A DNA stretch of 50,192 bases, from the sequence record PZ445416.1; one strand, 5' to 3'. The stretch's first letter is position 1. Every line of letters begins with the position of its first letter. A program made the translations under genes and the position numbers. The notes beneath the pieces were generated by a model, which was given only the letters and a program-made list of their open reading frames with translations, made no database searches and was not told the DNA's origin. Below are positions 30,704-44,403 of the stretch, in pieces. The DNA is from a phage.

Positions 30704-30737
30704 TTGCTAAAACTACCCGGCGAAAGTCGGGTATAGT
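30695..30737 (+). promoter_or_regulatory. Box-A cassette
   Basis: CAGCACTAATTGCTA, 22 bp containing hairpin ACCCGGCGAAAGTCGGGT, TATAGT; upstream stop TAA is inside the box. Confidence 0.6.
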
Positions 30738-30769
30738 TATTTCATGGAAACGAAATGAGGAATCAGAAG

Positions 30770-30979
30770 ATGGCACGCATTAACGCAAACTTTTTCAATA
30801 TCGCCCAGCAGTCTGCAAAAATGGCCGTTCATATTACGAACAAGCAAGGCGGCAACTTCGATTGGGATATTGCTATGAACTTCCTTAAAATGTCTTATTA
30901 CCGTTGCTCGGTTGAAGAAGTCGAAGGCTTTATCTCTGACGTGGAGAAAATAACTAATGCTGATAAAAAAGAAAGGTAA
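30770..30979 (+). CDS. hypothetical protein
   Basis: Start at MARIN after GAGGAA, downstream of Box-A cassette 30695-30737. Confidence 0.45.
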   Translation: MARINANFFNIAQQSAKMAVHITNKQGGNFDWDIAMNFLKMSYYRCSVEEVEGFISDVEKITNADKKER

Positions 30980-31229
30980 GCGCGAAGTGTGGGAGCACGC
31001 AAAGGAATGCGGAATCTCAGACGATATAGCACTAATAGCAAAATATTTCGATATAAAGGATGTTAGCATTATCTCAAACGGAAAGATTTCATTTATGGAA
31101 GATATGCCGAGAAAAATGCATAGAGTGCCAGCTACCCCATCACTTGAATTTTATCGTGAAGAAGGAAAGAGAATTGAGCGAGAACGAAAAACAGCAAAGA
31201 GCAACAAGTCTTCCAGGCTTAAACATTAA
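30957..31229 (+). CDS. hypothetical protein (frame-ambiguous region)
   Basis: 90-aa ORF overlapping a second long ORF in another frame over a Lys/Glu/Arg-rich AAG/GAA-repetitive stretch. Confidence 0.35.
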   Translation: MLIKKKGKREVWEHAKECGISDDIALIAKYFDIKDVSIISNGKISFMEDMPRKMHRVPATPSLEFYREEGKRIERERKTAKSNKSSRLKH

Positions 31230-31461
31230 CTTAGATGACTACCAGACCATATGGATCGGAAAGAAGCAGGTTAAGAAAATCCCTTTCTCTGATTGGTTGC
31301 CTCCTGACTTCGTTAATGTGCTTTGCACTATTGGGATCGAGCAAGAGTTGCATATAGGTTATTACTCACCAGGTAGAAACAGTATGATGCTTGAGGTTAA
31401 TGGAAAACTGGTTGAGTTTAAATCTTCAGATCTAGGATTCTGGTTAAAGGCTGTGGCATGA
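31060..31461 (+). CDS. hypothetical protein (frame-ambiguous region)
   Basis: 133-aa ORF; its C-terminal 80 aa look protein-like but the N-terminal part overlaps 30957-31229; no convincing RBS. Confidence 0.35.
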   Translation: MLALSQTERFHLWKICREKCIECQLPHHLNFIVKKERELSENEKQQRATSLPGLNINLDDYQTIWIGKKQVKKIPFSDWLPPDFVNVLCTIGIEQELHIGYYSPGRNSMMLEVNGKLVEFKSSDLGFWLKAVA

Positions 31462-31539
31462 GACTTTATTTTGCTGTAGTATTAACACCGCTAATTTCAT
31501 TTTCAGTAATGTATTTCATTATCATGTAAGGATTAAAAT

Positions 31540-32691
31540 ATGTCACAATCTAAAATCACTACCGAGCAACTTATCGAAGAACGCATGAACGGACTTACAC
31601 TTCGCGAGATCGCGGAAAAGTACGGTATGCACATTCGCACGGTTGAAGCTCGCCACGCAAAATTGGCAAAAGAAGGCCACTTCCACGGTAACGAGCATGT
31701 CGCTAAGAACGTACCGGAAGGATTCATGGTAAAAGGTACATCAACGATGATTCGCGGAGATGGGACCGAGGTAGTGCGCTGGGTTAAAACCGATCAGGAC
31801 CGTGAGAAGATCGCGGCAATGATGGAAGCGGCGCGCATTGCATTCTGTGAAGACCTGCCGCGAGCAAAGCCAACCGAGCTACTAGCCTCGCAAGGGCTTA
31901 CGACAGCGATGGGTAAGTTGGCGCTCTATCCGGTGTTCGATCTTCATATTGGTGCGCTTGCTCATAAGCATGAATGCGGTGAGAACTATTCCACCGACGT
32001 AGCGGAAAAAGTGCTTAGCGACTTCTTTAATTACGCGATCGATATCGCGCCGAACGCAGAGAAGGCTGTTCTGTTAATCGGCGGCGACTTCCTTCACTCT
32101 GACGGCCTTGATGCAGTTACCCCGGCAAGTGGTCACGTTCTTGATCAGGACTCACGATACGCAAAATTAGTTCATGTTGCGATTCGTTCGGTACGCCGAG
32201 CCATCGACAAAATGCTTATGAAACACAAAGAAGTCGAGGTCCAGGTTATCGAAGGGAACCACGATCAGTCTGGGATGATTTGGCTGCGAGCTGCAATGTC
32301 GGCATATTATGAAGACGAGCCGCGAGTATTCGTTGACGTTAGTCCTATGATTCTGCATAAGACTCGTTGGGGAAATACCTTGCTGGGATACACTCACGGG
32401 CACACTATGAAAAAGGCAGACACGCGACTTGCAGCAATGGCGGCAGATTTCCGGTCAGACTTCGGTGAGAGCAAGTATGTGTATACTCATAGCGGTCACT
32501 GGCATCACCAGACAATCACTGAGCACTCGCTTGGTATTGATGAAGTACACGGTCAGTTAGGCGCGAAAGATGCATACGCCGCGCGAGGCGGGTGGCGCTC
32601 ATATCGCCAGGCGGCGGTAATAGTTTACGATAAACAGTTTGGTGAAATCGGTCGATTCATCTACCGTCCAGAAATGACAGGATCGCACTAA
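31540..32691 (+). CDS. metallophosphoesterase with N-terminal HTH domain
   Basis: N-terminal LTLREIAEKYGMHIRTVEARHAKL is HTH-like; calcineurin-type motifs GGDFLHSDG, EGNHDQ, GHTHG and GHWHH. Confidence 0.65.
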   Translation: MSQSKITTEQLIEERMNGLTLREIAEKYGMHIRTVEARHAKLAKEGHFHGNEHVAKNVPEGFMVKGTSTMIRGDGTEVVRWVKTDQDREKIAAMMEAARIAFCEDLPRAKPTELLASQGLTTAMGKLALYPVFDLHIGALAHKHECGENYSTDVAEKVLSDFFNYAIDIAPNAEKAVLLIGGDFLHSDGLDAVTPASGHVLDQDSRYAKLVHVAIRSVRRAIDKMLMKHKEVEVQVIEGNHDQSGMIWLRAAMSAYYEDEPRVFVDVSPMILHKTRWGNTLLGYTHGHTMKKADTRLAAMAADFRSDFGESKYVYTHSGHWHHQTITEHSLGIDEVHGQLGAKDAYAARGGWRSYRQAAVIVYDKQFGEIGRFIYRPEMTGSH

Positions 32692-32725
32692 TTGCTAAAG
32701 ATACCCGAATCCCTTCGGGTATAGT
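32683..32725 (+). promoter_or_regulatory. Box-A cassette
   Basis: TCGCACTAATTGCTA, 22 bp with perfect IR ATACCCGAA/TTCGGGTAT, TATAGT. Confidence 0.6.
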
Positions 32726-32754
32726 AATCACATCGAAAACAAAGAGGATATATC

Positions 32755-32931
32755 ATGAAACTAGTTAAGTGCATCCGAAATGACTCCAAAACACTTCCAT
32801 TCCGCGTAAATCAGATCTATAGTGTTGGTTATGATTTCGGTGGGGGATTATTTGAGATTCACGATGGTCGAGGTTCAGCAATCCAGGCTCCTCTGAACGG
32901 CAGCTATCTGGAATTTATTGCGATAGATTAA
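32755..32931 (+). CDS. small hypothetical protein (58 aa)
   Basis: ORF MKLVKCIRND..., absent from the supplied track; sits at the canonical distance downstream of Box-A cassette 32683-32725 with RBS AAAGAGGA. Confidence 0.4.
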   Translation: MKLVKCIRNDSKTLPFRVNQIYSVGYDFGGGLFEIHDGRGSAIQAPLNGSYLEFIAID

Positions 32932-33049
32932 CAATATCATTCATCACCTTACAGGCTGGCATGATTTACATGCTGGCCTTTTTGCGTTGTGTCAAATAAA
33001 TTTGAAGGTTAAAATCAACTCACTTGTTCAAAAAATATATGGTGAGATT

Positions 33050-33265
33050 ATGAAAGAATTTTTAACCGCAGCTACGTCTAGCACGGGCGGGGCTTCATTA
33101 GTGGGGGCGGCGACCGGGCAACTTTATATTGCTGGCGCTACATTCATTTGCTTTCTGCTTTTTGGTGCTTGGGGCGCATACTGGAAGTATCGTGATAGCA
33201 AGGCGATTCAGGAAGCGTTAAACGATGGCGATCTAAATAAGGCACTTAAGATCAGGGGGAGATAA
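33050..33265 (+). CDS. putative holin
   Basis: 71 aa with one strongly hydrophobic segment ([21 protein letters not shown]) and charged C-terminus; stop overlaps the endolysin start. Confidence 0.55.
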
Positions 33266-33753
33266 TGAGCTTAAAAAATAACGTTATAGGCGCATCGATC
33301 GGGGCTGCTTTGACGTTGACGCCTACCCTACTGGAACGAATCGAAGGGATAGAATACGAGGTGTATTACGATATCGCCGGAGTCCCTACCGTATGCAGCG
33401 GAATAACCGGGCCTGACGTCATACCTGGTAAGAAATACACTAAGCGAGAATGCGATGCATTGCTGATAAAACATATCGGCGTCGCTCAGCGATACGTTGA
33501 CAAAAAGGTGAATGTTGATATTCCGGTAACGATGCGCGCGTCACTGTACAGCTTCACTTTCAACGTTGGTACTGGCGCGTTCGGATCTTCTACAATGCTT
33601 AAGCTAATAAATCAGAGTAAGCACAAGGAAGCGTGCAATCAGTTATGGCGATGGGTATACTACTACAACCCAAAAACAAAAAAGCGAGAAGTGTCTAGAG
33701 GACTCAAGAACCGACGCGCTGAAGAATACGCGTATTGCGTTAAGGAATTATGA
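33265..33753 (+). CDS. endolysin (lysozyme-like muramidase)
   Basis: 162 aa; N-terminal [26 protein letters not shown] resembles the catalytic E...D...T region of GH24 phage lysozymes. Confidence 0.75.
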
Positions 33754-34154
33754 TGAAACTGAAGAAAACGTGCATTGCGATTGCAGTGGCTTTTGGTGTT
33801 ATTTCCCTATCCGGTTGCTCGACGGCATCTGCCCTGAGCGGTTTAATCGGATCTAAACCGGAAGTTACAGCACAAATCGGAGAGGAGAACACAAAGCAAT
33901 TAGCAGGAGTAACCGCAAAATCCGAAGATAAGCGAGATGTTAAAGTTGAGAAGTCCAATGTAGGAAAGATTGACTCTTCCTTGAAGAAGTCAATTGAAGT
34001 GTCAACCATTAAGGCTAACACGGTTAACGCTGAAAGCATCACAGTAACAAAACCGGAAAACTGGTACGATGCTATCGTTGGCTGGATTCTCGTTTTTATC
34101 GGTCTATTGCTGGTTTATTTTTCACTTCGTAAGGACGAAAAAAAGGAGGCGTAA
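33750..34154 (+). CDS. unimolecular spanin (lipoprotein with C-terminal transmembrane anchor)
   Basis: Lipobox LSGC after a signal peptide, plus C-terminal TM helix [13 protein letters not shown]; overlaps endolysin stop. Confidence 0.7.
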
Positions 34155-34168
34155 GCCTCCTTTCTTTT
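34138..34168. terminator. bidirectional terminator at lysis cassette end
   Basis: AAAAAAA, GGAGGCGTAAGCCTCC hairpin, TTTCTTTT; between convergent spanin and minus-strand early genes. Confidence 0.6.
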
Positions 34169-34382
34169 ATGCATCATCCCACATGTAACTTTCGTTCGTG
34201 AGTTTTGCGTATTCGCGAACTTCAATCTCACAGGTGTCTCCGTACATCTCAGCGACCTTCTTCTCGTTCGCTACCGCCGTTTCTTCATCCCATCCATCAG
34301 CCTTGCTGTAAATGGTAGGAATCTCACTGCTAGTGCCGTTAGAGTGGTTGTAAACGCGAACTACTAAAAATTTGTTAGCCAT
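34167..34382 (-). CDS. hypothetical protein
   Basis: Start moved to MANKF after AAGGAAAG; downstream of Box-A cassette 34420-34462. Confidence 0.5.
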   Translation of the reverse strand: MANKFLVVRVYNHSNGTSSEIPTIYSKADGWDEETAVANEKKVAEMYGDTCEIEVREYAKLTNESYMWDDA

Positions 34383-34419
34383 GATGCTTTCCTTCAGGTC
34401 GTTTCGTTTCGATGAAACA

Positions 34420-34462
34420 AATATACCCGATACGAGATCGGGTGTTTTAACAAAAAGTGCTA
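34420..34462 (-). promoter_or_regulatory. Box-A cassette (minus strand)
   Basis: Minus strand TAGCACTTTTTGTTA, 22 bp with IR CCCGAT/ATCGGG, TATATT, leader CATCGAAACGAAACGA. Confidence 0.6.
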
Positions 34463-34571
34463 TTTGTACCTTTTTACGTGAAGTAGCAACTCCCCCTCCT
34501 GGTCGCAAAGATTATGCTCGCTTTCGTTACTAGCCCTCATTGAAGTGAGTAACAGACTCAACAACCCTTGC

Positions 34572-34979
34572 TCAAATTCTTCTTTCGTAAGCTGGAGCCT
34601 TGCGCACAATTCGACGTTCTGATCTATCAATGTTTCTACGTTCGCCAAACAAATCTTCATCACTCATCTCTCCAATGTGCATCATTTCCCACGTATACCG
34701 ATTGTTGTAGCCATCAATACACATCAGCTTCATCATTACAGGGCGCTTAATCTTTCCCTTGCACCAGTAAAACCCATCCTTGCAATCAAGATAACCCTCA
34801 GTCACGCAGCGCGCGCAAAACTCCTTAGATAGCGCGCTTGTAAATTCACGGCGAGTCATTCCGGCGGCCTTAGCAAATCGCTCACTTTCCTTGTGGGCGT
34901 ATATAAATTTCGCTATGTGCTGTCGAGTGTATTTGTCGTAACCTTCGCAGAACCTGAACAGATCTAAAAGAAGAAGCAT
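34572..34979 (-). CDS. hypothetical Cys-rich protein
   Basis: 135 aa; Cys cluster CARCVTEGYLDCKDGFYWCKG; start lies 5 nt after the stop of the upstream P-loop gene. Confidence 0.5.
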   Translation of the reverse strand: MLLLLDLFRFCEGYDKYTRQHIAKFIYAHKESERFAKAAGMTRREFTSALSKEFCARCVTEGYLDCKDGFYWCKGKIKRPVMMKLMCIDGYNNRYTWEMMHIGEMSDEDLFGERRNIDRSERRIVRKAPAYERRI

Positions 34980-34983
34980 ATTA

Positions 34984-36552
34984 TTAACCCATCAGTCGAG
35001 GATTGATGAAAACAATATCATCAATCCGGCAAGTGTAGTTCATCTCTTCGAGCGTTATCAGCAGGCTGTCGATTCGCTCAGATACTTTCTGTTGACCGTT
35101 GAACGGCGTAACGTTACGGCACTTTGCAACAATGCTATGAATCGGAGCGCGCCCTTTATTCTTCTTTGCGATCTCAGTGATAACATCAATCAGCTTACGA
35201 GATTCAGCCTCATCACCAGCATACCCGGCGGCGCTTGCGGACGACAGATAAGTCCTGGAAAGCTCATTGAAAATCATAATCGCTTCCTGCATTGTCTCAA
35301 GATCAATCTCACGATTAGATCGGTTCGGTGATTCACCCTCCCAATTCTTGATCGTGTGAAGAACTGAAGCAATGCGCAAGGCGTGCTTATCGAACTTACC
35401 GAGATGACCGCGTAGCATTGAGTGAGAGTATTTGCCCCCGGCGGCGAAATCAGGCTCCATCGCCTGGCGAGCAAGGTTTAATTCACGCATAGCGTTACGG
35501 CTTACAGAGAGAACAACGTTGTCTTCCTTCATGATGTTGTGAACGAGTCTGTAATATTTGCTAACCAGTCCGCGATCGACTTCTTTATACAATGCATCAC
35601 CATTTTCATCACAAAGAATACGAGTACCTAAAAGCGGTTCCTCGCGAACCAATAGGAAACGCTCAGATACACCGATACCGCGCTGGCCTGCGTCCATGAT
35701 ACCCTTGATTGTTTCATCCTGCGCAATGACGCAGATCGAACCGACCGGGCAAAGAGATAAGTTGTTGTCTTGGTTTGAACGCGCGACCTCCATATGGTTT
35801 TTATCCCACGCCTTAAGGATAAGTTCGCTGTTTGATTTCTTATCAGAGCCGCCATAAGTCAGGCCGAGCAATGTGTTGATTGCTGTCGCCTCATCAGAGA
35901 TTACTGAGAAGTGACCTTGAACAGCCGCCACCTTCGCAAGACCTTCAGGTGTAGGATCTGATACAGCGAAAACAATATCAGCCATCTTCTTGATCTTTTC
36001 TTCCAGTTTTTCCTTGTCCTCGTATAGCGCTGCCGTCGTGTTACCCTTCGGGTCGTTTTTAATTTCCTTCTCGACCTGACGTAGCTGACTGGTTAAACGG
36101 ATACGTTCCTTTTTTCGCTCTTCATTCAGTCGCTGAATCTCTGCGCGCATAGGCGTAATCGCTGCGGAGTTAATCGCAGATTTACCTGTTGACGGTGGCT
36201 GGCTGATTACCATGTAAAGAGCGGTTGGTTGTTCTTCTCCGTGATATTGCACCCAAAACTTCCCGAGCATCGCGGCTGATATGCACCCAATGAAATGAGC
36301 GTACGCAGACGAAACAGGGAACTGTACAGACTCGGCCTTTGCTTTTGCATATTCGAATACCAGGTTATCGCCACCTAACGAAATCAGAGGGAACTTATCG
36401 TTGCCGCTATTGATATCGATCGGATCTTGCCAAAATGAAACTGAGTCACCATAGCTGTTTTCACGAATTGCTATCGCCACCGGATTAACTCCAGTGCTAT
36501 TGGCGATCTCAATAATCTGTTGGTAATTCAGTTTTGGCTTAATATTAAACAT
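34984..36552 (-). CDS. P-loop NTPase of unknown function
   Basis: Start moved to MFNIK after AAGGAG; Walker A-like QPPSTGKSA, then long coiled-coil and helical regions; no further family assignment possible. Confidence 0.6.
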   Translation of the reverse strand: MFNIKPKLNYQQIIEIANSTGVNPVAIAIRENSYGDSVSFWQDPIDINSGNDKFPLISLGGDNLVFEYAKAKAESVQFPVSSAYAHFIGCISAAMLGKFWVQYHGEEQPTALYMVISQPPSTGKSAINSAAITPMRAEIQRLNEERKKERIRLTSQLRQVEKEIKNDPKGNTTAALYEDKEKLEEKIKKMADIVFAVSDPTPEGLAKVAAVQGHFSVISDEATAINTLLGLTYGGSDKKSNSELILKAWDKNHMEVARSNQDNNLSLCPVGSICVIAQDETIKGIMDAGQRGIGVSERFLLVREEPLLGTRILCDENGDALYKEVDRGLVSKYYRLVHNIMKEDNVVLSVSRNAMRELNLARQAMEPDFAAGGKYSHSMLRGHLGKFDKHALRIASVLHTIKNWEGESPNRSNREIDLETMQEAIMIFNELSRTYLSSASAAGYAGDEAESRKLIDVITEIAKKNKGRAPIHSIVAKCRNVTPFNGQQKVSERIDSLLITLEEMNYTCRIDDIVFINPRLMG

Positions 36553-36581
36553 CACAATAAACTCCTTAGTTGACGGTGTAA

Positions 36582-36624
36582 ATGATACACCGCCAATGGT
36601 ACACGCGTTTTGCAAAAAGTGCTA
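36582..36624 (-). promoter_or_regulatory. Box-A cassette (minus strand) upstream of P-loop gene
   Basis: Minus strand TAGCACTTTTTGCAA, 22 bp, TATCAT, IR GGTGTA/TACACC. Confidence 0.55.
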
Positions 36625-36628
36625 TTGG

Positions 36629-37045
36629 TTATAAGTATTTGGCCTCAAAGGTTGTGCCGTCTGCGATACTAAAACCAACCTCTTCGCGAAATAAGGTCCA
36701 GCGACAACCATCTTCATCAAAGATGTAACCAGCTACGCCACCGAGAGCGCGACCGCTTTCAACCTGGTAACGCTTGCCAACTTTGAATGATTTTTTCATT
36801 GGGTTGCGATGGTCAAGCCCGGTGCACTTGAGCGTCTTTGTTTTCAACTCAGTGAACTTCGCGAAGAAGATTTCATCAGATCCGTGAATCTGTAATTCAT
36901 CATGCTTTTCAAGTTTTAAATACTTCCCGCATTTTAATTTTACTTCGCGAGTGCCATCATAGCGCTCACGACCTTTGTATAGGTTGTTTACTTCAAATCC
37001 TGTGATTTTATCTGCGTGAGTGCATTTCAGTTTGATGGATTTCAT
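36629..37045 (-). CDS. hypothetical protein
   Basis: 138 aa, RBS CAGGAG, downstream of Box-A cassette 37082-37124. Confidence 0.5.
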   Translation of the reverse strand: MKSIKLKCTHADKITGFEVNNLYKGRERYDGTREVKLKCGKYLKLEKHDELQIHGSDEIFFAKFTELKTKTLKCTGLDHRNPMKKSFKVGKRYQVESGRALGGVAGYIFDEDGCRWTLFREEVGFSIADGTTFEAKYL

Positions 37046-37081
37046 TTCGTTAACTCCTGATTGGTTATCTTGAATAAGGTC

Positions 37082-37124
37082 ACTTTATCAAATGACCTTA
37101 CGGCAATATTAACAAATCGTGCTA
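37082..37124 (-). promoter_or_regulatory. Box-A cassette (minus strand)
   Basis: Minus strand TAGCACGATTTGTTA, 22 bp, TAAAGT enclosed by IR AAGGTCA/TGACCTT, leader CCAATCAGGAG. Confidence 0.55.
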
Positions 37125-37125
37125 T

Positions 37126-37335
37126 TTACCAGGGAATATAATCGTCGTCGTCCTCATCAATATCATCGCCAGGTAACTCGAAGTTTGGATTATATTCGCT
37201 TTCTGCGTCCATATCCATATTCCCTAGAGCGTCCTCAAGTGTGATTTCTTTATATGCAACCTTGATACACCATTCCGCACTAAGCCCGGCATCAAGAGCG
37301 GCAAAATAACGAGTCCAGAAATTATCCCGTTCCAT
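37126..37335 (-). CDS. small acidic protein
   Basis: ATG at 37335 (track start is a TTG one codon upstream); C-terminus LPGDDIDEDDDDYIPW is strongly acidic. Confidence 0.5.
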   Translation of the reverse strand: MERDNFWTRYFAALDAGLSAEWCIKVAYKEITLEDALGNMDMDAESEYNPNFELPGDDIDEDDDDYIPW

Positions 37336-37338
37336 CAA

Positions 37339-37563
37339 TTAACTCCATGAATTAATGTAAATTGAGTTAGCCTCAAGCGTAGCGCGCACATCAGCATCTG
37401 TTGCATTTACTAAGCGCGAGCCTGGCGTGCTGCCGATAACGTTATTACCGTTACGAGTCTTAGTTACCGTCATTGAAATAAAACCGGAAGACTTATCCAT
37501 TTTGATAACTACACGGCCTTTCGCGTTCAGGTGCTTGATGATATTCTCAACTTTAATGCTCAT
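37339..37563 (-). CDS. hypothetical protein
   Basis: 74 aa, RBS AAAGGA, downstream of Box-A cassette 37596-37639. Confidence 0.5.
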   Translation of the reverse strand: MSIKVENIIKHLNAKGRVVIKMDKSSGFISMTVTKTRNGNNVIGSTPGSRLVNATDADVRATLEANSIYINSWS

Positions 37564-37595
37564 TTTTAATTCCTTTGTTTGTTTGGTGTGGGAGT

Positions 37596-37639
37596 AATAT
37601 ACCTTACTCCCTGCTGATTGTCTTTAGCTATTCGTGCTA
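37596..37639 (-). promoter_or_regulatory. Box-A cassette (minus strand, variant box)
   Basis: Minus strand TAGCACGAATAGCTA, 23 bp, TATATT, IR GGGAGTAA/TTACTCCC. Confidence 0.5.
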
Positions 37640-37779
37640 TCAGTACTCAGAAATTACTTTGCACTCTTTGATTGTGCCGCCTAGAACTACTTTCTGCATC
37701 ATTGCCTTTTGGTGGCTATCGTAAACGCGAACATTTTTTACGCTGTTAAATTTGCCAGTATAGAAAGTGTGAATATAAA

Positions 37780-38100: not shown

Positions 38101-38117
38101 TACTCCCCCTTAACCAG

Positions 38118-38318
38118 TCAGGATAGCTTTCGCGCTTCATCAATGATAACAGGTTCGAGGCGCTCAAGTCGAACGCGGAACGTGTTCATAAATCCCTCGT
38201 TGTTCTTCAATAATTCGAAGGCATCCGTAGCTTCAATTGCGCTATTTCCCATGTAGGCAACTACTCTCTTTTTCGTCTTGCGTGAGATCGCAACCACGCG
38301 GTAGATATTATCACTCAT
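38118..38318 (-). CDS. hypothetical protein
   Basis: Start at MSDNIY; ATGAGTGA overlap with the upstream stop. Confidence 0.45.
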   Translation of the reverse strand: MSDNIYRVVAISRKTKKRVVAYMGNSAIEATDAFELLKNNEGFMNTFRVRLERLEPVIIDEARKLS

Positions 38319-38682
38319 ACAATGCCTCCTTAACACGATCCGCAATGCAGGAGTTTACAGTGATTGAGTAGTTAGCCACGCCCCATAATGCAATATTGCC
38401 AAGCTCGGTACGCATTGATGGATTGTTAAGCTGGATTATTGTCTCTCCAGTATCATTATCAATAAAGCGAGACACGCCTAAATGGTCCACAGCGCGGGTT
38501 ACTCGGTTCACGCACTCCATTGCATCACTTACGCCGTAATAAGCGCTTAGAGCGGCTCTCACTCCATTCTCTTGCTTGTTGTAAATCTTGCGCGCAATGT
38601 TCTCGATCGCTACATTCTCTTTCTCGTCAGTCTGGATTGCTGTGCTTGCTGAGAAGTCTAGGTCTACGAATTGTTTAAACAT
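38311..38682 (-). CDS. hypothetical protein
   Basis: Start moved to MFKQF, at the canonical distance from Box-A cassette 38714-38756 with leader ACGAGG. Confidence 0.5.
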   Translation of the reverse strand: MFKQFVDLDFSASTAIQTDEKENVAIENIARKIYNKQENGVRAALSAYYGVSDAMECVNRVTRAVDHLGVSRFIDNDTGETIIQLNNPSMRTELGNIALWGVANYSITVNSCIADRVKEALYE

Positions 38683-38713
38683 GGTGATTACCTCGTTTTC
38701 TGTTGATGGGATG

Positions 38714-38756
38714 ACTATACCAGCCATCCTTGATGCGCGTTTAGCAATTTGTGCTA
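38714..38756 (-). promoter_or_regulatory. Box-A cassette (minus strand)
   Basis: Minus strand TAGCACAAATTGCTA, 22 bp, TGgTATAGT, IR GGATG/CATCC. Confidence 0.6.
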
Positions 38757-39092
38757 TTAAGCAATATCGAACTCAGCGGCGTACGCTTCTTTGAAGCCAG
38801 CTTCACGCATGGTGCGCTTACTGATTTTGCGCGGGAATTTGTACTGGCTGTTAGGCATCACCCACCAGAAGCAAGCTGTCTCGCGAACGATTTCATATTT
38901 ACCGTAACGAGTGAAGGTGTCGCGCTCCATGTCAGGCTGGTTAACACAGGTCAGGAATTTAACTTCCTTGTCTTCAGTTTTGATTTCTTCCCAAACGAAG
39001 GAGTCCATTCCGTTAACCTTGCAAGCAACCATGATGTACTCAAAGCCGTTTTCGATTTTGATGATTTCGTTACCGCGATTTTCGTATTTCAT
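38757..39092 (-). CDS. hypothetical protein
   Basis: 111 aa, RBS CAGGAG, downstream of Box-A cassette 39131-39173. Confidence 0.5.
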   Translation of the reverse strand: MKYENRGNEIIKIENGFEYIMVACKVNGMDSFVWEEIKTEDKEVKFLTCVNQPDMERDTFTRYGKYEIVRETACFWWVMPNSQYKFPRKISKRTMREAGFKEAYAAEFDIA

Positions 39093-39130
39093 TTTCTTGC
39101 TCCTGATGTGTATCTCGTTTCGATGAGGTA

Positions 39131-39173
39131 ATTATGCCAAATCACACCGATCGAGTTTTAACAAAAAGTGCTA
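39131..39173 (-). promoter_or_regulatory. Box-A cassette (minus strand)
   Basis: Minus strand TAGCACTTTTTGTTA (stop of the methyltransferase-like gene inside box), 22 bp, CATAAT, leader CCTCATCGAAACGAGA. Confidence 0.6.
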
Positions 39174-39862
39174 TCCGCGATCGCTTTAAAAAATCCCCTG
39201 GGTGATAGGGATCGTATCAACTTAGTTTTGGCAGATTTGCCGCCTAGCTTGCTGTGCTGCGCAGAGTACCCGTCAGGCAGGCTTACAGGTTTTCTTTCAG
39301 GCATGACAAAATCGTCAGAGGTCCACAGACAAGTTTTCTTCGGGTAAGCATCGCGCGGCGCAATATACATAGGGAACCAGGGATGCGCGTCATTCTCAGG
39401 AAGATAGCCGCCATACTCCCAGGGATTGAAGGAGTGATTTGGTTTTCTCCACACAGACGACAGGACGCTAACCGGATTCTCAATGATGTAAGTCACACCC
39501 AGGCTATCGCCAATGTTCGCGGCAATCCTTGCGGTGGCAACGGCCTTTTCCTGGAATAACGGATCGCGTTCACGCTTTCTTGCGAAGTGGGCGGCACCGC
39601 TAACAGCCAGGTCGGTACACGGAGGGAAAGCCATAATGAAATCCGGCTTGCCATACACACCAGCGATAGCATCACGCTCAAACGCTGCGTCAATGAACAC
39701 GTTCACATACTCAATGTTCGGATGCTCCACCCGGGCATTGTACTTTGCATAATCCCCGTGATCGGCTCCGTCAAAGTTGAAGCACATCACCTTGTGACCT
39801 TGCTTAGCCAGTTCATGACCAGCAAGACCGGAACCGTCGAATAGCGACCAGATTAATTTCAT
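39158..39862 (-). CDS. C5-cytosine methyltransferase-like protein
   Basis: Start moved to MKLIW after AGGAG; motif order FDGSG (I), FPPCTDLAVSG (IV, Thr in place of the usual Gln), IIENP (VI); short at 234 aa. Confidence 0.55.
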   Translation of the reverse strand: MKLIWSLFDGSGLAGHELAKQGHKVMCFNFDGADHGDYAKYNARVEHPNIEYVNVFIDAAFERDAIAGVYGKPDFIMAFPPCTDLAVSGAAHFARKRERDPLFQEKAVATARIAANIGDSLGVTYIIENPVSVLSSVWRKPNHSFNPWEYGGYLPENDAHPWFPMYIAPRDAYPKKTCLWTSDDFVMPERKPVSLPDGYSAQHSKLGGKSAKTKLIRSLSPRGFFKAIADSTFC

Positions 39863-39895
39863 TGCAAATCTCCTACTGATTGGTTGATGTGATGA

Positions 39896-39939
39896 ATCAT
39901 ACACTGCCAGCCTGACCAAGTCGTTAGCAAAAAATGCTA
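39896..39939 (-). promoter_or_regulatory. Box-A cassette (minus strand) upstream of C5-methyltransferase-like gene
   Basis: Minus strand perfect palindrome TAGCATTTTTTGCTA, 23 bp, TATGAT, leader CCAATCAGTAGGAG. Confidence 0.6.
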
Positions 39940-40020
39940 TTCCAATAGTTGCTCATTATTCCACCAGTAATGGAATATCTGGAATAATTGCGATCCCGAT
40001 TGATCTCGAATGATGAAATG

Positions 40021-40090
40021 TGATTGTTGCATGATGTGCAACTGTTGATGTGATTGTTGCTTGGAATGCAATGATTGTGAGAGGGAGGAT
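40021..40090. repeat. iteron-like direct repeats and short palindromes
   Basis: 13-mer ATGTGATTGTTGC at 40028 and 40058 (30-bp register), plus palindromes TTGCATGATGTGCAA and TTGC-N6-TGCAA. Confidence 0.55.
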
Positions 40091-40129
40091 TTAGTGTTAC
40101 CCGGTTCGCCTGGTGGTCATCTCCATTTT

Positions 40130-40144
40130 TAGCAAAACGTACTA
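40130..40144 (-). promoter_or_regulatory. isolated Box-A-like site within AT-rich hub
   Basis: Plus strand TAGCAAAACGTACTA (minus strand TAGTACGTTTTGCTA); no hexamer at the cassette position. Confidence 0.4.
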
Positions 40145-40230
40145 TCGATTACACTTTAACTTGTCACGATTGTAATATTTGTCTAGAATCGCACTTGTGA
40201 CAAAATTACGCACTGTGACGCATAACAATA

Positions 40231-40300
40231 GACATATAGATATATGTATATATATAATATATATAGTGTTTTTTTTATTTATATATATAGATAATCATAT
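40231..40300. repeat. TA-rich tract with element TATATAATATATATAG (second copy)
   Basis: TATATGTATATATATAATATATATAG...ATATATATAGATAAT inside the 630-bp non-coding hub between the divergent early clusters. Confidence 0.7.
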
Positions 40301-40548
40301 TGTAATAGTTGTGTATAGCTGTCTTACATTGTCTAGCGTACTGTTGGCATATTTCTATCTGCATGTTTATATATACAGTACTTTTTTGAGAGCTATATAT
40401 TTCTATGGTTACTCTAGACAGCTAGACAAATGTTACACGGCTTAAAATTGACTCGCAGGCATTGACAGCTCTACATCACGTTGTCACAATGGCAATTGTT
40501 GACACATTATGACGCCATTTACACACAAATAGACAAAGAGGATATATT

Positions 40549-41064
40549 ATGAGCAATACCAATCAGGAATTAAAAATCACCGATATGATTCGCCTAACCT
40601 GTGATGCAATGTACCGCGACAAAGGCATGACCGAGTTCTCTTTCGTGGCTGATGATATGGCCCTAGAAGCAGCGCGATTCTACTTCCGTGGCCAGGAGGT
40701 AAGCGATGCCGATCTTGAATCTGCCGCTGCCGGATGGGTGGACCAGAACCAGGGGGAGGTAGAGAAGCGATTCAAATCTGCTTTCATCACTCCAATCATT
40801 ACCCGACACTTTTGCAAGTATGGCAAGGTGGCAAAGGTGAAGGTAGGCCGGAATGACGCGGCAATCACGATGATAACCGTTATCGTTACAGACGAAGAGG
40901 TTCCAGTGAAGAAACGCCGTAGCCGGAAAAAAGTTAGCCTGGCCGACTGCCTGGACTCGTTTGATGTTGATGTTAGCAAGCTATCAGATAGCGAGTTAAT
41001 GGTTCGTGATGTGAATGAGATCGTGCGCCAGATGAAAGCGCATATTGAAAAGTGTGGACTGTAA
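40549..41064 (+). CDS. hypothetical protein (first gene of rightward early cluster)
   Basis: 171 aa, RBS AAAGAGGA, directly downstream of the AT-rich hub. Confidence 0.5.
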   Translation: MSNTNQELKITDMIRLTCDAMYRDKGMTEFSFVADDMALEAARFYFRGQEVSDADLESAAAGWVDQNQGEVEKRFKSAFITPIITRHFCKYGKVAKVKVGRNDAAITMITVIVTDEEVPVKKRRSRKKVSLADCLDSFDVDVSKLSDSELMVRDVNEIVRQMKAHIEKCGL

Positions 41065-41070
41065 GGAGAG

Positions 41071-41316
41071 ATGAGTATGAGCAAGATTAAGCATGACGCC
41101 CTGAAAGGTATCTTGATGCGACTAAACCCAGGCGAAGCATTCCAGCTTAACCCCGAGACGTTTGGATTCAATGGTGATTATCGTACAACCTTCGAATTTG
41201 TAAGGTATGTAAAGAAAGAGTTTGGATTCGAAGTTATTCACGCAGGTCTTATCAATGGCATCCAGACATTCATCTTTAAGCCAAATGAGATTCGTTGCTT
41301 CACGATGATGAAATAG
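41071..41316 (+). CDS. hypothetical protein
   Basis: 81 aa, RBS AAGGAGAG; its stop TAG is the first triplet of Box A at 41314. Confidence 0.5.
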   Translation: MSMSKIKHDALKGILMRLNPGEAFQLNPETFGFNGDYRTTFEFVRYVKKEFGFEVIHAGLINGIQTFIFKPNEIRCFTMMK

Positions 41317-41356
41317 CACTTTTTGTTAAAGCCCGGTCGAGCGGATCGGGTATTAT
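41314..41356 (+). promoter_or_regulatory. Box-A cassette
   Basis: TAGCACTTTTTGTTA, 22 bp, TATTAT, leader CATCGACACGATACAGAGGA. Confidence 0.6.
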
Positions 41357-41388
41357 CTTCTCATCGACACGATACAGAGGAATCGAAG

Positions 41389-41583
41389 ATGGAAATGCAA
41401 ATTGATGTGGTTGTTGTTCAGCGCGACTCAACTCATGAAAAGGGTCTGTTCAAGAAAGGAACCGAAATCACGATCGACCTTGAGGATATGGTTGCATATC
41501 ACTCGGGCCTTACCTGGAACGTGGTGCGCGTAGGCAGCGACTACAAACTCAAAGGCTTTAACACTTACTTTGCGGAGGTTTAA
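41389..41583 (+). CDS. hypothetical protein
   Basis: Start moved to MEMQID after CAGAGGAA, at canonical cassette distance. Confidence 0.5.
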   Translation: MEMQIDVVVVQRDSTHEKGLFKKGTEITIDLEDMVAYHSGLTWNVVRVGSDYKLKGFNTYFAEV

Positions 41584-41585
41584 TC

Positions 41586-42056
41586 ATGGCGACAATTACC
41601 GTATTCCTGGCTAAAGATGAGATTGATGGCGAAATGTCATTCTTCGCGTTTGAGCACAAGACCGGATCGCACTGGCACATGTACAGTCACTACACGGTTA
41701 TTGATATCAACTCATACGCTTGCGATTCGCTAAATGAAAAACTTGGTCGATTCATTGAGCATGTTAAATTAAGAGATGGTGGCGAGTGGAATGATAAGCA
41801 TGAAGGTCGACGCATGTGTGACATGATTGATCCTGTTTATCTGGAGTCGTTCGAGCTTGATGCTGATGTTGCCATTAAGGTGAGAAAGTCGGGTGAATTG
41901 TTGCCAGGGATGCGTGTGCTGACTGGTTACTCGGGCCGTAAGGTGTGGCGCACTGTATCCAAGATTCGCCAGCGTTCGGCAACATGCTATAGCGTATTCT
42001 TTGATGATGGTTGGAATATGATTTCCGGCAGTGAGGTAAAGTATCTCACCAAATAG
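41586..42056 (+). CDS. hypothetical protein
   Basis: 156 aa; stop TAG is the first triplet of Box A at 42054. Confidence 0.5.
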   Translation: MATITVFLAKDEIDGEMSFFAFEHKTGSHWHMYSHYTVIDINSYACDSLNEKLGRFIEHVKLRDGGEWNDKHEGRRMCDMIDPVYLESFELDADVAIKVRKSGELLPGMRVLTGYSGRKVWRTVSKIRQRSATCYSVFFDDGWNMISGSEVKYLTK

Positions 42057-42096
42057 CACGAATTGTTAAAACCGGATCGGGGTATCTTGCTATAGT
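42054..42096 (+). promoter_or_regulatory. Box-A cassette
   Basis: TAGCACGAATTGTTA, 22 bp with IR GGGGTA/TACCCC, TGcTATAGT. Confidence 0.6.
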
Positions 42097-42134
42097 TACC
42101 CCATCAAAACGAGATACCAATCAGAGGATTCACC

Positions 42135-42365
42135 ATGTCAATCGTCAAGAACCAACAAGCCATCGACTCAACCAGCCACAACCGCTTTGCTATTTTCATC
42201 ACATCTATAGGTCGCCGATTTGCAGTTAAGGCCGCGCCTGGTGGATACAAAACATACATGGAGGATAACGGGAAATGGGTGTGGTGCGAAAACCTAGCCA
42301 ACTTCCTGGTATGGAACGCAGACCTGCAAGGATTCGATGATATCAGCACTTTAATTGAGGAGTAA
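42135..42365 (+). CDS. hypothetical protein
   Basis: 76 aa, leader CCAATCAGAGGA. Confidence 0.5.
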   Translation: MSIVKNQQAIDSTSHNRFAIFITSIGRRFAVKAAPGGYKTYMEDNGKWVWCENLANFLVWNADLQGFDDISTLIEE

Positions 42366-42371
42366 ATAATA

Positions 42372-42599
42372 ATGCCACGTTACAGTAACCTAACCAAACT
42401 AGTCCGCGTCAACGGGCATATGATCCCGGCTAAATCTACTCACTGCGCGAAAGGCGCAAAGCACGGATTATATTTCAAGTGGCGCGGTCAATGGAACTTC
42501 ACGGCGGTGAGCAATTTTTACATGCGAGTTCCAGGTGATGACCCGCAATCGGTAGTAGAAAACTCAATAGGTGACAACAAGATCGAGGTGCTAAAATGA
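42372..42599 (+). CDS. hypothetical protein
   Basis: 75 aa, basic and Cys/His-containing. Confidence 0.45.
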   Translation: MPRYSNLTKLVRVNGHMIPAKSTHCAKGAKHGLYFKWRGQWNFTAVSNFYMRVPGDDPQSVVENSIGDNKIEVLK

Positions 42600-42706
42600 A
42601 CTTCAATACAATAGCTCTATGGTCTGCCGTCTGGTTCTTCTGCATGGGTCACGTTATGGTCGGCATCGTGGTAATGCTTCTCCTGTGCGCGGGGGCGTTC
42701 GAATGA
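42596..42706 (+). CDS. putative small membrane peptide (36 aa)
   Basis: ATGA overlap with upstream stop; almost entirely hydrophobic (ALWSAVWFFCMGHVMVGIVVMLLL); absent from the supplied track. Confidence 0.35.
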   Translation: MNFNTIALWSAVWFFCMGHVMVGIVVMLLLCAGAFE

Positions 42707-42876
42707 TGCGAATATTGATTTGCATGATGGCGGCTGTCGCCCTGGCTATCCTGGTAGTGTCCGGCTGCGGCGAGGTCAAAGAGCGATGCCATGAAACCGG
42801 GAGCCAGGCTACTACTTTCGTGATGGTTGGCAACGTTTTGCTACCAATCACATCAAATGAAATCACTTGCGAATAG
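42703..42876 (+). CDS. putative small lipoprotein (57 aa)
   Basis: Start MMRIL overlaps the previous stop; signal peptide with lipobox-like VVSGC. Confidence 0.4.
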   Translation: MMRILICMMAAVALAILVVSGCGEVKERCHETGSQATTFVMVGNVLLPITSNEITCE

Positions 42877-42884
42877 AGGTTAAT

Positions 42885-43076
42885 ATGGCTGACTTTATGC
42901 ACCAAATGATTGCAGTATTCAAAGGTAGCGAAGATGAGGAAGTAAAAGAGTGCTTTACTGTCGACAAGCCTTATAACGCTTCTCTGACCAGCTTCGGTAA
43001 CATCTCATTGCTTGATGATAATGGCGACCCCTGGGTATTCGATGAAGATACGGATTGCTTCGAAATTAAAGAATAG
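42885..43076 (+). CDS. hypothetical acidic protein
   Basis: Start at MADFMHQ after AGAGG; stop TAG is the first triplet of Box A at 43074. Confidence 0.5.
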   Translation: MADFMHQMIAVFKGSEDEEVKECFTVDKPYNASLTSFGNISLLDDNGDPWVFDEDTDCFEIKE

Positions 43077-43116
43077 CACTTTTTGTTAAAACGCGATCAT
43101 ATGGTTGCGATATAGT
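43074..43116 (+). promoter_or_regulatory. Box-A cassette
   Basis: TAGCACTTTTTGTTA, 22 bp, TATAGT, leader CACATCAACAACGAATGAGGA. Confidence 0.6.
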
Positions 43117-43147
43117 AACCACATCAACAACGAATGAGGACGAGAAC

Positions 43148-43636
43148 ATGAAAATTAAATTACTGTGCACTGGAGGTTACAAAGGCTTTACTCGCAACCT
43201 GGAGTCAGACCCGATTATCGTTGACGCTGTGAAGTGTGATGATAGCACGGGCGGCTACCGTGTTAAGGTTGACGATCTGGTAAAAGCTGGCGTGTACGAT
43301 CTGGATTATGGACTTTCGGTTAGCCCGGTAGTCGGTCCGGCAGACTTCAATGAGAAAAACGGAACGATGTTCTTCTTCGAGTGGGAAGTCCAGGCAAATC
43401 CTAAGCCGCGCAAGGTTCGACTTCTCAATAGTGGCGGATACCCGATGCGCTCGGGGTATGAGAACCGCACGTTCCCGGTTATCGTTGATTTTGAAGAAAT
43501 CACTAGCAACCTGGCATACGTTAACGATGAGCAGTTGCGAGCGGTTGGATTTGTCGGCGGTATGAATAAAGAGGCGCTCTGCTTCTTCCATCGAGATCCA
43601 GAACCGTTCGATATTGAGTGCGAGTTAGTTTACTAA
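43148..43636 (+). CDS. hypothetical protein
   Basis: 162 aa; stop TAA overlaps Box A at 43635. Confidence 0.5.
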   Translation: MKIKLLCTGGYKGFTRNLESDPIIVDAVKCDDSTGGYRVKVDDLVKAGVYDLDYGLSVSPVVGPADFNEKNGTMFFFEWEVQANPKPRKVRLLNSGGYPMRSGYENRTFPVIVDFEEITSNLAYVNDEQLRAVGFVGGMNKEALCFFHRDPEPFDIECELVY

Positions 43637-43677
43637 GCACGAATTGTTAAAAGGGGATTTGTCCTGACTGGTATAAT
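43635..43677 (+). promoter_or_regulatory. Box-A cassette
   Basis: AAGCACGAATTGTTA, 22 bp with IR GGGGATT/AATCCCC, TGgTATAAT. Confidence 0.6.
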
Positions 43678-43707
43678 CCCCACATCAACCACTAAGAGGA
43701 AAGCATC

Positions 43708-44214
43708 ATGTTAAAATTAGAATACGTAAAATTCCCGATTAAATTTATCAGCCTGGGTTGCGGTGAAATTACACTCACCAGTGAAGATAAAGGCAAGTGG
43801 GCCACTGATGAGGTGTCTCAGCTTAAGTTGGATTGGTTTATCAATCGGCACAATGAAGTAAATCCTGAAAACTCAGCCAAGAAGGATTACCATTACATTA
43901 TTAGTGGTAGTCAGGATGCGTACGGAAAGTATGATGGTTGGAAAACTGATCGATCCATCTTCCACCCCGCAAAGCCAGAAATTAAACCGATGTTACAATG
44001 CACTCAGATCGAGAACATGCCATTGAGCGCTACGCTAAAGGGCGTCCAACTTGATAGCGAATCCTGGACCGAGATTACCGCCACACCTAAAACTATTGAG
44101 GTGCATGATGATGTAGTGATTCTCCTATTGCATTACGGCAGCTTTAAGCACAAAACGGTATCAGGTGAAATAAGCATTAAGCGCGGAACACTTGTACGCT
44201 ATGAGGTGAAATAA
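43708..44214 (+). CDS. hypothetical protein
   Basis: 168 aa; RBS AAGAGGAAAG. Confidence 0.5.
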   Translation: MLKLEYVKFPIKFISLGCGEITLTSEDKGKWATDEVSQLKLDWFINRHNEVNPENSAKKDYHYIISGSQDAYGKYDGWKTDRSIFHPAKPEIKPMLQCTQIENMPLSATLKGVQLDSESWTEITATPKTIEVHDDVVILLLHYGSFKHKTVSGEISIKRGTLVRYEVK

Positions 44215-44363
44215 TGGCGGCGTGGATTTTGATTATCTTGATGAGTACCGGGCCGGATCACGTATACATGGAAAGTCAGCAATCATGCAACAAGGCTCGG
44301 GAAGTAATTGCAGAGAGCAAGCCGTTCGGATACGAAGTAAAAACGATGTGCGTTAAACGATAG
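44214..44363 (+). CDS. small hypothetical protein (49 aa)
   Basis: ATG overlaps upstream TAA; hydrophobic N-terminus (AAWILIILMS); stop TAG is the first triplet of Box A at 44361; absent from the track. Confidence 0.35.
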   Translation: MAAWILIILMSTGPDHVYMESQQSCNKAREVIAESKPFGYEVKTMCVKR

Positions 44364-44403
44364 CACGAATTGCTAAACCTTCCGCAAGGCCATTTGATAT
44401 AGT
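44361..44403 (+). promoter_or_regulatory. Box-A cassette
   Basis: TAGCACGAATTGCTA, 22 bp with IR AAGGCCA/TGGCCTT, TGaTATAGT. Confidence 0.6.

Follow-up and report, generated by a model that had tools for sequence, protein, structure and literature searches.

Covarying sense-strand hairpins within putative promoter cassettes at the early-gene junctions of a T1-like phage

Described systems closest to the cassettes

Promoter-early stem-loop (PeSL) cassettes, which combine an early promoter with a variable stem-loop, have been described in the T4-type phages RB49/phi1, PST and nt-1 (Arbiol et al. 2010, PMC2839356; Comeau et al. 2014, PMC4122927). They are the closest analogue that has been studied by experiment. 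In RB49/phi1 the stem-loops lie most often between the -35 and -10 elements or overlap the -10, with G-T pairs in their stems, and were interpreted as terminators/attenuators of upstream transcription; lacZ experiments showed that a full cassette is a strong promoter and that one stem-loop reduced read-through to much the same extent as rrnB T1, a strong terminator (PMC2839356). The authors of these studies proposed that the cassettes mediate modular shuffling (PMC2839356, PMC4122927). The present analysis deals with a series of intergenic cassettes in the phage sequence PZ445416.1 (50,192 nucleotides, the whole of which is called here the window), each formed by a conserved 21-nt box, a -10-like hexamer and, in most copies, an inverted repeat of variable sequence placed in the intervening spacer or around the hexamer. 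With a probability of roughly 0.6, these would be PeSL-like composite promoter/attenuators, the hairpin being a 3'-end element of the upstream gene that is interleaved with the promoter of the next one.

The window is the genome of a T1-like phage (Drexlerviridae) and the cassettes belong to its early-gene regions. By megablast, the nearest relatives of positions 30000-45000 are T1-like siphoviruses with about 92% identity (571 phage records matched, the best being Escherichia phage SA12KD, Shigella phage Sfin-1 and IME18), and phage T1 is collinear with the window. If the cassettes are indeed PeSL-like, they would extend this type of element to a new phage family. They share with PeSL the association of an early promoter with a variable, G-T-containing stem-loop located between an upstream element and the -10 or overlapping the -10, the repetition before many small early genes (about 20 copies in the window) and, possibly, a presence at mosaic boundaries. 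The two differ in the promoter itself, since PeSL has a near-consensus sigma70 promoter, complete with a normally spaced -35 and an UP region of high AT content, whereas the T1-like cassette has a 21-mer 22 bp from the hexamer and no usable -35; of the full PeSL consensus (-35, 17 bp, -10), it is the -10, together with G-14 and +1, that is conserved here. They differ also in the phage lineage (T4-type phages versus Drexlerviridae siphoviruses), in that about half of the T1-like hairpins have no U-rich tail, and in the nature of the data, as reporter and mini-circle experiments support PeSL while the T1-like cassettes are known from sequence alone.

The upstream box corresponds to the published T1-like 21-nt repeat, an intergenic element co-oriented with genes, with the consensus aaATAGCACnnnTTGnTAAAA; the consensus is the same in T1, TLS and Rtp. 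Eighteen intergenic copies were reported in TLS, with others in T1, Rtp and Rogue1, and the function of the repeat, for which a stoperator, an enhancer or an UP element was suggested, was named an open question in the 2024 reannotation of TLS (PMC11447400). It is the same element as the one found here, as the consensus, the orientation with transcription and the location about 76 nt before start codons all match. In contrast, that paper treats the repeat alone, reporting neither the hexamer at +20 nor the hairpins. The only adjacent terminators that it lists are T57 and T62, which come right behind DR10 and DR12 in its Table S1, and it does not connect them with the repeats (PMC11447400). Likewise, the T1 RefSeq record NC_005833 annotates four rho-independent terminators (35930..35971, 38973..39001, 39998..40024 and 41980..42007) at the sites of cassette hairpins, each with an orthologue in the window. 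These annotations are limited to the minority with U tails, however, and most cassette hairpins, chiefly those that enclose the hexamer, fail terminator criteria.

Partial parallels exist with two other groups of hairpins. Intercistronic stabilisers, such as the E. coli repetitive extragenic palindromic (REP) elements in malE-malF and the CUUCGG hairpins of T4, shield the upstream message from 3' exonucleases; like the cassette hairpins they are stable stem-loops between co-transcribed genes, often with UUCG or GNRA loops, but they are not interleaved with promoters, and REP is conserved in sequence whereas the cassette hairpins are conserved only in pairing. The promoters of the N4 virion RNA polymerase also carry a hairpin, which forms on the template strand, has 3-nt loops and conserved sequence, and requires the N4 polymerase. 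The cassettes differ from these in having a sense-strand signal, variable loops, a predicted reliance on the host polymerase and a dependence on upstream transcription.

Cassette layout and pairing in the spacer

Matches to GCACKAATTGYTAAA with at most two mismatches number 24 in the window, against 0.63 expected. The window copies have the layout (a)aATAGCAC-N3-TTG-Y-TAAA(a), followed after exactly 20 nt by a TATAGT-like hexamer and, 5 nt further on, by CA, whose A is the predicted +1; the CA often appears as CATCGAAACGA and precedes a ribosome-binding site (RBS) context, ACCAATCAGAGGA, and the ATG. Nineteen good copies occur between 22398 and 47803, a degenerate twentieth starts at 26709(-), and the strand of each cassette is that of the local genes. 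A first-pass annotation, made from the letters of the window, had noted a 22-bp spacer, which proved exact as the distance from TTGYTA to the hexamer, and had placed the feature at 30710-44403; it is present throughout that range and extends more widely, from 22392 to 47854.

The same cassette type was found in members of three subfamilies, T1, TLS and Rtp, and in many T1-like contigs of IMG/VR. These genomes and contigs supplied a family-wide sample of 103, later 232, non-redundant cassettes. Among 188 non-redundant strict 21-mers, collected with no filter on the hexamer, a -10-like hexamer stands at exactly +20 in 159, at +19 in 11 and at +21 in 8, and the position frequencies are 0.88 for A-11, 0.90 for T-7, 0.65 for T-12, 0.81 for G-14, 0.74 for C-1 and 0.80 for A+1. 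A-11, T-7, G-14 and A+1 are features of extended -10 sigma70 promoters, with the TG motif being partial (T-15 at only 0.37). Nothing was conserved in these 188 sequences where a -35 was sought, 16-18 bp from the hexamer, the TTGYTA box being 22 bp away. The conserved positions thus carry the signature of a host sigma70 promoter of the extended -10 type, a prediction drawn from base frequencies.

The arrangement is equally rigid with respect to the flanking genes. Of 130 co-directional junctions, 87 use the TAG within ATAGCAC as the stop codon of the upstream gene, and in 31 more the stop codon lies 3-4 nt earlier (118/130 in total). On the other side, the 5'-untranslated region between the predicted +1 and the start codon has a median of 25 nt (interquartile range 24-27; for example, 42050-42135 in the window). 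The junction is therefore a fixed-length module in which only spacer and discriminator are free, so that a hairpin must sit around the -10.

Folding was scored as the RNA minimum free energy (MFE) of a 38-nt segment that begins where the box ends and closes 12 nt beyond the hexamer. The 19 window cassettes have a mean MFE of -12.07 kcal/mol, compared with -5.1 for segment shuffles that keep the hexamer fixed (z=-13.8), -7.4 when downstream arms are swapped among cassettes (z=-10.6) and -4.9 for random 38-mers from the same genome (z=-10.3). Individually, 17 of the 19 fall at or below the 5% shuffle tail, the weak ones being 29674 and 45910. The excess over shuffled spacers on which the first-pass annotation had hung its proposal is thus present, and it holds in the larger sample, in which the 103 non-redundant cassettes have a mean MFE of -10.58 against -4.87 for shuffles (z=-31) and -7.12 for arm swaps (z=-16.7).

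Perfect stems span 3-9 bp, reaching about 16 bp in a few cases when G.U pairs and internal loops are counted; hairpin centres cluster near -19.5 and -12 with a variable register, and some helices extend into the downstream transcript as far as about +8 to +17. Hairpins lying inside the spacer and ending at or before the hexamer were designated class I, and those whose arms flank the hexamer class II. Among the 232 cassettes there are 78 of class I (about one third), 115 of class II (about half) and 39 with no convincing hairpin. The earlier description of arms that flank or overlap the hexamer consequently holds for many copies, but about one third of the hairpins lie wholly within the spacer and the register is not fixed. 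The five inverted repeats then quoted all exist, with slightly corrected coordinates: ACCCGGC/GTCGGGT, shifted by 1, at 30715-30721/30726-32 with one G.T pair, and the others at 32701-09/32714-22, 42079-84/42097-102, 43653-59/43675-81 and 44386-92/44403-09.

The claim that pairing is kept while the sequence varies was borne out by covariation across copies and relatives. A fixed-register test of column-pair complementarity over all cassettes gave weak signals only (maximum z about 3) because the hairpin centres vary, and per-family covariation was used in its place; single-linkage clustering lumped 76 cassettes of differing register and yielded no consensus fold. Across 26 families, only 54 of 1859 cells are unpaired. 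One family, which includes the window cassettes 37122(-), 44363(+) and 46430(+), comprises 30 distinct sequences with 95.5% of cells paired against 79.1% when shuffled (0/500 as high), and pairing falls to 32-48% if the partner is slid by 1-3 columns. Its inner helix is 99.5% paired, with both sides changed in 5/7 pairs, and occurs as AAGGCCA/TGGCCTT, AAGGGCA/TGCCCTT, AGGGGCA/TGTCCCT, AACGTCA/TGGCGTT, GGAGACA/TGTCTCC, AAGCCCA/TGGGCTT and other variants; in the outer helix (CTTC/GAAG type) both sides changed in 3/4 pairs, making 8/11 over both helices. Class I covaries too, with both sides changed in 6/7 pairs (0/500 shuffles as high; registers mixed). A search of the whole window gave 0 matches to Rfam families at the gathering threshold, and no tRNA or tmRNA was found. 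The window cassettes are as follows.

22392..22446 (+): variant 21-mer, class II; TATAAT 22432-37 at 19-nt spacing, enclosed by arms 22423-31/22438-46; MFE -13.8, 0/200 shuffles as low
26651..26715 (-): degenerate 21-mer (15-mer starts 26709); hairpin ACGCGTAG 26687-80 / CTACGCGT 26664-57 around TAACAT (26674-69), then TTTTTTATTT; the hairpin at 26687-26651, between the regulator and primase genes, is predicted to be a true intrinsic terminator; its orthologue is an annotated terminator in T1 (35930..35971) and T57 in TLS
27158..27214 (+): first in the helicase operon, the gene upstream being divergent; weaker, AT-rich hairpin CGTTTAC/GTAAACG 27181-87/27208-14 enclosing TATTAT (27199-204); z=-3.0
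29668..29721 (+): weak spacer hairpin, arms 29691-97/29704-10; CATTAT 29709-14; shuffle test not significant; T1 orthologue an annotated terminator (38973..39001)
30691..30744 (+): class I; arms 30714-21/30726-33 with a GAAA loop, abutting TATAGT (30732-37) and a T-rich tail; T1 orthologue an annotated terminator (39998..40024)
32679..32732 (+): class I; 9-bp stem ATACCCGAA/TTCGGGTAT 32701-09/32714-22, overlapping the first 3 nt of TATAGT (32720-25)
34413..34466 (-): class I; arms 34443-37/34431-25; TATATT 34425-20; T-rich tail
36559..36628 (-): class II; core arms 36596-86/36580-70 around TATCAT (36587-82); z=-4.7
37066..37128 (-): class II, covarying family A1; TAAGGTCA../..TGACCTTA 37101-090/37085-074 around TAAAGT (37087-82)
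37590..37643 (-): class II; GGGAGTAA/TTACTCCC 37611-04/37597-90; TATATT at 21-nt spacing
38707..38760 (-): class II; arms 38729-21/38717-09 around TATAGT (38719-14)
39114..39177 (-): irregular class II; hairpin 39155-40/39133-14 around CATAAT (39136-31); z=-2.4
41310..41363 (+): class I; GCCCGGTC/GATCGGGT 41331-38/41344-51 abutting TATTAT (41351-56)
42050..42105 (+): class II; GGGGTA 42079-84 / TACCCC 42097-102 flanking TATAGT (42091-96)
43070..43123 (+): cassette with TGGTT 43102-06 / AACCA 43117-21 flanking TATAGT (43111-16); T1 has GGGGTT/AACCCC, a compensatory change
43631..43684 (+): class II; GGGGATT 43653-59 / AATCCCC 43675-81 overlapping TATAAT (43672-77)
44357..44416 (+): class II, two helices; inner AAGGCCA 44386-92/TGGCCTT 44403-09, outer CTTC 44379-82/GAAG 44413-16; TATAGT (44398-403) in the loop
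45904..45957 (+): weakened hairpin AGGTGAA 45933-39 / TTCCCCT 45950-56 with one mismatch, not significant; perfect in T1 (AGGGGAA/TTCCCCT)
46424..46488 (+): class II, multi-part; inner AAGGGTA 46453-59/TGCCCTT 46470-76 (one G.U), outer helices reaching 46488
47797..47854 (+): class II; 14-bp G.U-rich stem 47821-34/47841-54 around TATAGT (47838-43); MFE sense -18.9, antisense -4.6

Strand, upstream context and competing explanations

The pairing is a property of the sense strand. In the window the mean MFE of -12.07 compares with -8.85 for the antisense strand (p=0.0005), and in the 103-cassette set the better fold belongs to the sense strand in 76 cases and to the reverse complement in 26 (p=1.6e-8). 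Composition was rejected as the cause of this asymmetry, since shuffles gave a difference of opposite sign (+0.3 versus -2.15 observed, z=-9.6). The effect comes from class II (sense better in 82 versus 32, p=1.5e-7), class I being symmetric (40 versus 38) with almost pure Watson-Crick stems. When class II helices were searched in a model-free manner that treats G.T and A.C alike, internal G.T pairs prevailed over A.C (72 versus 31, p=6.6e-5), whereas the same search in shuffles favoured A.C (201 G.T versus 264 A.C). Moreover, among 37 tetraloops closed by stems of 4 bp or more, 12 are GNRA or UNCG (4.7% expected, p=7e-8), with only 2 in the reverse-complement form. These data support a single-stranded, sense-strand RNA hairpin rather than a cruciform. 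An antisense terminator, with TTTTAGCAA following the hairpin on the opposite strand, was discarded as the principal role because the pairing favours the sense strand. Finally, the 5' arm starts between -36 and -19, upstream of +1, and therefore the transcript of the cassette itself cannot contain the hairpin; only upstream read-through RNA can.

The hairpins also depend on what lies upstream. They are missing from 9/130 cassettes (7%) that follow a co-directional open reading frame (ORF), compared with 17/35 (49%) of those that come after a divergent gene start or after a canonical terminator (Fisher 8e-8), and the mean MFE is -13.1 in the co-directional context versus -7.8 and -4.8 in the others. 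In a strict set (exact 21-mers, loci with at least two cassettes) the hairpin is missing in 7/102 versus 8/23 (p=0.001). Nearly all class I hairpins lie at co-directional junctions, and cassettes devoid of hairpin are found directly after textbook terminators, for example at Rtp 16306 (...CCCTCTTCGGAGGGTTTTTTATT), L024 and L146. This supports the view that the hairpin belongs to the read-through transcript of the upstream gene.

The first-pass annotation had offered two alternatives, a cruciform or melting element in DNA and an RNA hairpin in read-through transcripts, and the strand asymmetry, the G.T excess, the enrichment in GNRA/UNCG loops and the upstream-context dependence uphold the second. 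The cruciform is disfavoured because both strands would have to pair and RNA tetraloops serve it nothing, and a melting element finds no support because a promoter-intrinsic element should also exist where no upstream transcript arrives; instead of equal pairing on both strands at every promoter copy, as a cruciform or N4-type element implies, there is a strand asymmetry, one third of the hairpins leave the hexamer out, and 49% of the cassettes without an incoming transcript have no hairpin. A different DNA-level proposal, in which a hairpin of the non-template strand would offer the -10 as a loop to region 2 of sigma70 in an N4-like fashion, perhaps helped by a binder of the 21-mer or by a cruciform, also predicts a sense bias; it fits the regular placement of the class II hexamer in the loop and the few head-of-unit cassettes that retain a hairpin (27164+), and some unusual recognition would be needed at a promoter without a -35 at 17 bp. 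It is nevertheless highly unlikely, since class I leaves the hexamer outside the structure, hairpins are often absent exactly where no upstream RNA arrives, the register relative to the hexamer is not fixed and the enriched tetraloops are of RNA type. In addition, G-14 is conserved at 0.81 and the TGn motif is read as duplex DNA, and stems of 5-8 bp with loops of 10-15 nt extrude poorly from a duplex. Of the other explanations, the one in which the hairpins guide cutting of polycistronic early RNA into monocistronic messages by RNase E or RNase III, like the early RNase III sites of T7, agrees with sense-strand structures at co-directional junctions, with class II hairpins lacking U-tracts, with some multi-part helices of about 16 bp that span -32 to +17, and with AU-rich single-stranded flanks (the 21-mer and CAUCGAAACGA, one at either side). 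It is unlikely all the same. RNase III usually needs about 20 bp (two helical turns) of double-stranded RNA, a length that the cassette stems do not attain, and its involvement is improbable because most of them have only 5-9 bp, or 5-16 bp at the widest range; no conserved cleavage motif stands in register with the stems, whose register varies, and canonical terminators seem to replace the hairpin in 3/5 cases, which fits a 3'-end role better.

Two further explanations have still less in their favour. The palindromes might be DNA features or hitch-hikers of mobile or recombinogenic cassettes, as in PeSL-type shuffling, where crossovers were located at the stem-loop or close to it (PMC2839356), and 9 of the 20 breakpoints in homology between the window and T1 (HSP ends) do fall in cassettes, whose share of the region is 8.9% (p=2e-5 under a null of uniform placement). 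Compensatory double changes together with the preference for G.U over A.C indicate selection on sense-strand pairing, not an inherited palindrome, which makes this a very remote explanation. More remote still is a 5'-terminal hairpin, in which transcription would start at the 3' end of the 21-mer, acting as a phage-specific promoter, and each message would carry a stabilising stem-loop as T7 late transcripts do. The 21-mer does resemble the promoter of a single-subunit polymerase in its length and AT-rich 3' end, and the hairpin begins 2-8 nt past it; yet T1-like genomes have no RNA polymerase or sigma gene (PMC11447400), the hexamer at +20 with A-11, T-7, G-14 and the CA at +1 form a host sigma70 signature, and the dependence on an upstream co-directional gene would be left unexplained.

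Several points weigh against regarding the hairpins as 3'-end elements of composite promoter/attenuators. The context classes behind the 7% versus 49% comparison are crude, being based on an ORF-length heuristic that left 58 cassettes as unclear, and the set used includes some chance 21-mer matches, the strict re-analysis keeping the effect at p=0.001. Some cassettes truly at the head of a unit carry a hairpin (27164+ and, in T1, 36447+). As regards termination, class II tails average 1.05 T per 8 nt and fail the canonical intrinsic-terminator rule, and class I tails are only slightly T-richer than the same positions elsewhere (3.2 versus 2.7). A literature search for transcription start sites, RNA-seq or transcript 5'/3' ends of T1-like phages found none.

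Proposed function, the 21-mer and significance

Within these limits, a role of the hairpin as attenuator, terminator or stabiliser of the upstream transcript appears the most likely one. A subset plainly looks like intrinsic terminators. A promoter/terminator scan flags 30714-30733, 41331-41351, 34443-34425(-) and 29691-29710, and relatives have textbook spacer hairpins such as AAAACCCGC-tacg-GCGGGTTTTG. The combination of a GC-rich stem, a short loop and a direct U-tract is nonetheless restricted to a minority, with at least 5 T in the 8-nt tail in 11/78 class I cassettes; in the window it is present, or nearly so, at 26687-26651(-), 30714, 34443(-) and 41331. Since class II has no U-tract, canonical termination is unlikely for about half of the hairpins, which may rather act in attenuation, pausing or 3'-end protection of the upstream message.

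In the proposed model, almost every early-gene junction would be a compact promoter-plus-stem-loop cassette. The promoter would be recognised by sigma70, with extended -10 character, starting at the A of the conserved CA, and would have an activator-type site, the 21-mer, near -42, where a class II-type activator, possibly the Cro-like helix-turn-helix (HTH) protein described below, would bind. Polymerase coming from the upstream gene would transcribe through the cassette, and the 20-nt spacer and 5-nt discriminator, the sole sequence-free positions, would have been selected to form a stem-loop in that read-through RNA. About one third of the hairpins, GC-rich, with stable tetraloops and abutting the T-rich hexamer/discriminator, would work as partial intrinsic terminators (attenuators), and about half, which enclose the hexamer and lack a U-tract, more probably as exonuclease barriers or as pause/attenuation structures. 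The cassette's own transcript, beginning inside or after the 3' arm, would never contain the hairpin.

A far more speculative extension, distinctly unlikely at present, is that the U-tract-less class II hairpins are a new sort of factor-dependent attenuator that, with a Cro-like protein on the 21-mer at about -42, would make a switchable "stop-and-restart" junction. If so, a polymerase arriving from upstream would stop or be released at a promoter where it or another re-initiates, and each small early gene would be metered independently. In a bolder variant, the non-template-strand hairpin may hand the -10 to sigma70 as a single-stranded loop.

The 21-mer is an imperfect 17-bp palindrome, TAGCA-N5-TGCTA, centred near -42. 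It was rejected as an RNA hairpin (UAGCA-N5-UGYUA), as variants break pairs with no compensatory change, and it is therefore regarded as a sequence-specific site. A sigma54 promoter, with the consensus TGGCAC-N5-TTGC and its GG and GC dinucleotides at invariant spacing, was rejected too, the box TAGCAC-N3-TTGC having AG for GG and a spacing 2 bp short; a sigma28 promoter and a hidden -35 at 16-18 bp were dismissed for want of conservation there. The location of the 21-mer is that of class II activators, lambda cI at PRM being one example. A conserved HTH protein encoded at 26696-27150(-) is the homologue of T1 gp23, TLS gp57 and Rtp52, is annotated as a transcriptional regulator in these three phages and has a sub-threshold match to Pfam P22_Cro (E=7e-5, below cutoff); this Cro-like protein may be the binder of the 21-mer. 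Its gene has its own canonical sigma70 promoter at 27228-27200(-), and in TLS the regulator gene is among only three genes with such a promoter (PMC11447400).

Some copies of the box depart from the cassette arrangement. The 21-mers at 6125-6139(-), 9888-9902(-) and 25623-25637(+) are intergenic but run counter to the genes around them, with a terminator hairpin next to each (such as 25684-25701), and such copies are kept in T1 (15083-, 18847-, 34905+) and TLS (DR7); they might drive short antisense RNAs into late-gene ends or the primase gene. At 49613-49645(+) a 21-mer, GCACTAAATGTTAAA, stands with neither hexamer nor hairpin directly before the RBS and ATG of a terS-like gene, as also in T1 at 8365, and the box therefore seems to have a role independent of the promoter half. 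Downstream, most hexamers are followed at +1 to +11 by the conserved initial transcribed motif, CATCGAAACGA, with an A-rich stretch at +5 to +12 (34413-34403(-), 47850-47860(+)), and in some cassettes GTTTC/GAAAC could pair as a second small hairpin across +1. Region 39920-40550 is an AT-rich divergent control region separating two early operons, with canonical sigma70-like promoters at 40161, 40229 and 40462 (+), a 21-mer variant without hexamer at 40142(-) and short repeats (tgtgattgttgc twice, ctagaca and tatata runs); it is likely an immediate-early promoter or origin region. In the comparison of 32676-44428 with T1, several of the breaks lie next to HNH endonuclease genes or to inserted small ORFs, in a PeSL-like mosaic pattern.

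Few coliphages and Klebsiella phages are as common as the Drexlerviridae, yet their transcription programme is essentially unmapped. With respect to the question raised by the TLS reannotation, the 21-nt repeat would be only the upstream third of a rigid module that has the stop codon inside, 20 free nucleotides, an extended -10, a start 7 nt further on and a 25-nt leader. Genome annotation would benefit, as most such promoters and 3' elements are currently missed, and the cassettes may offer compact insulated expression units for phage engineering. The comparison with PeSL suggests an independent origin of composite promoter/attenuator cassettes in the T4-type and the T1-type phages, and that they may be a general way to package small early genes.

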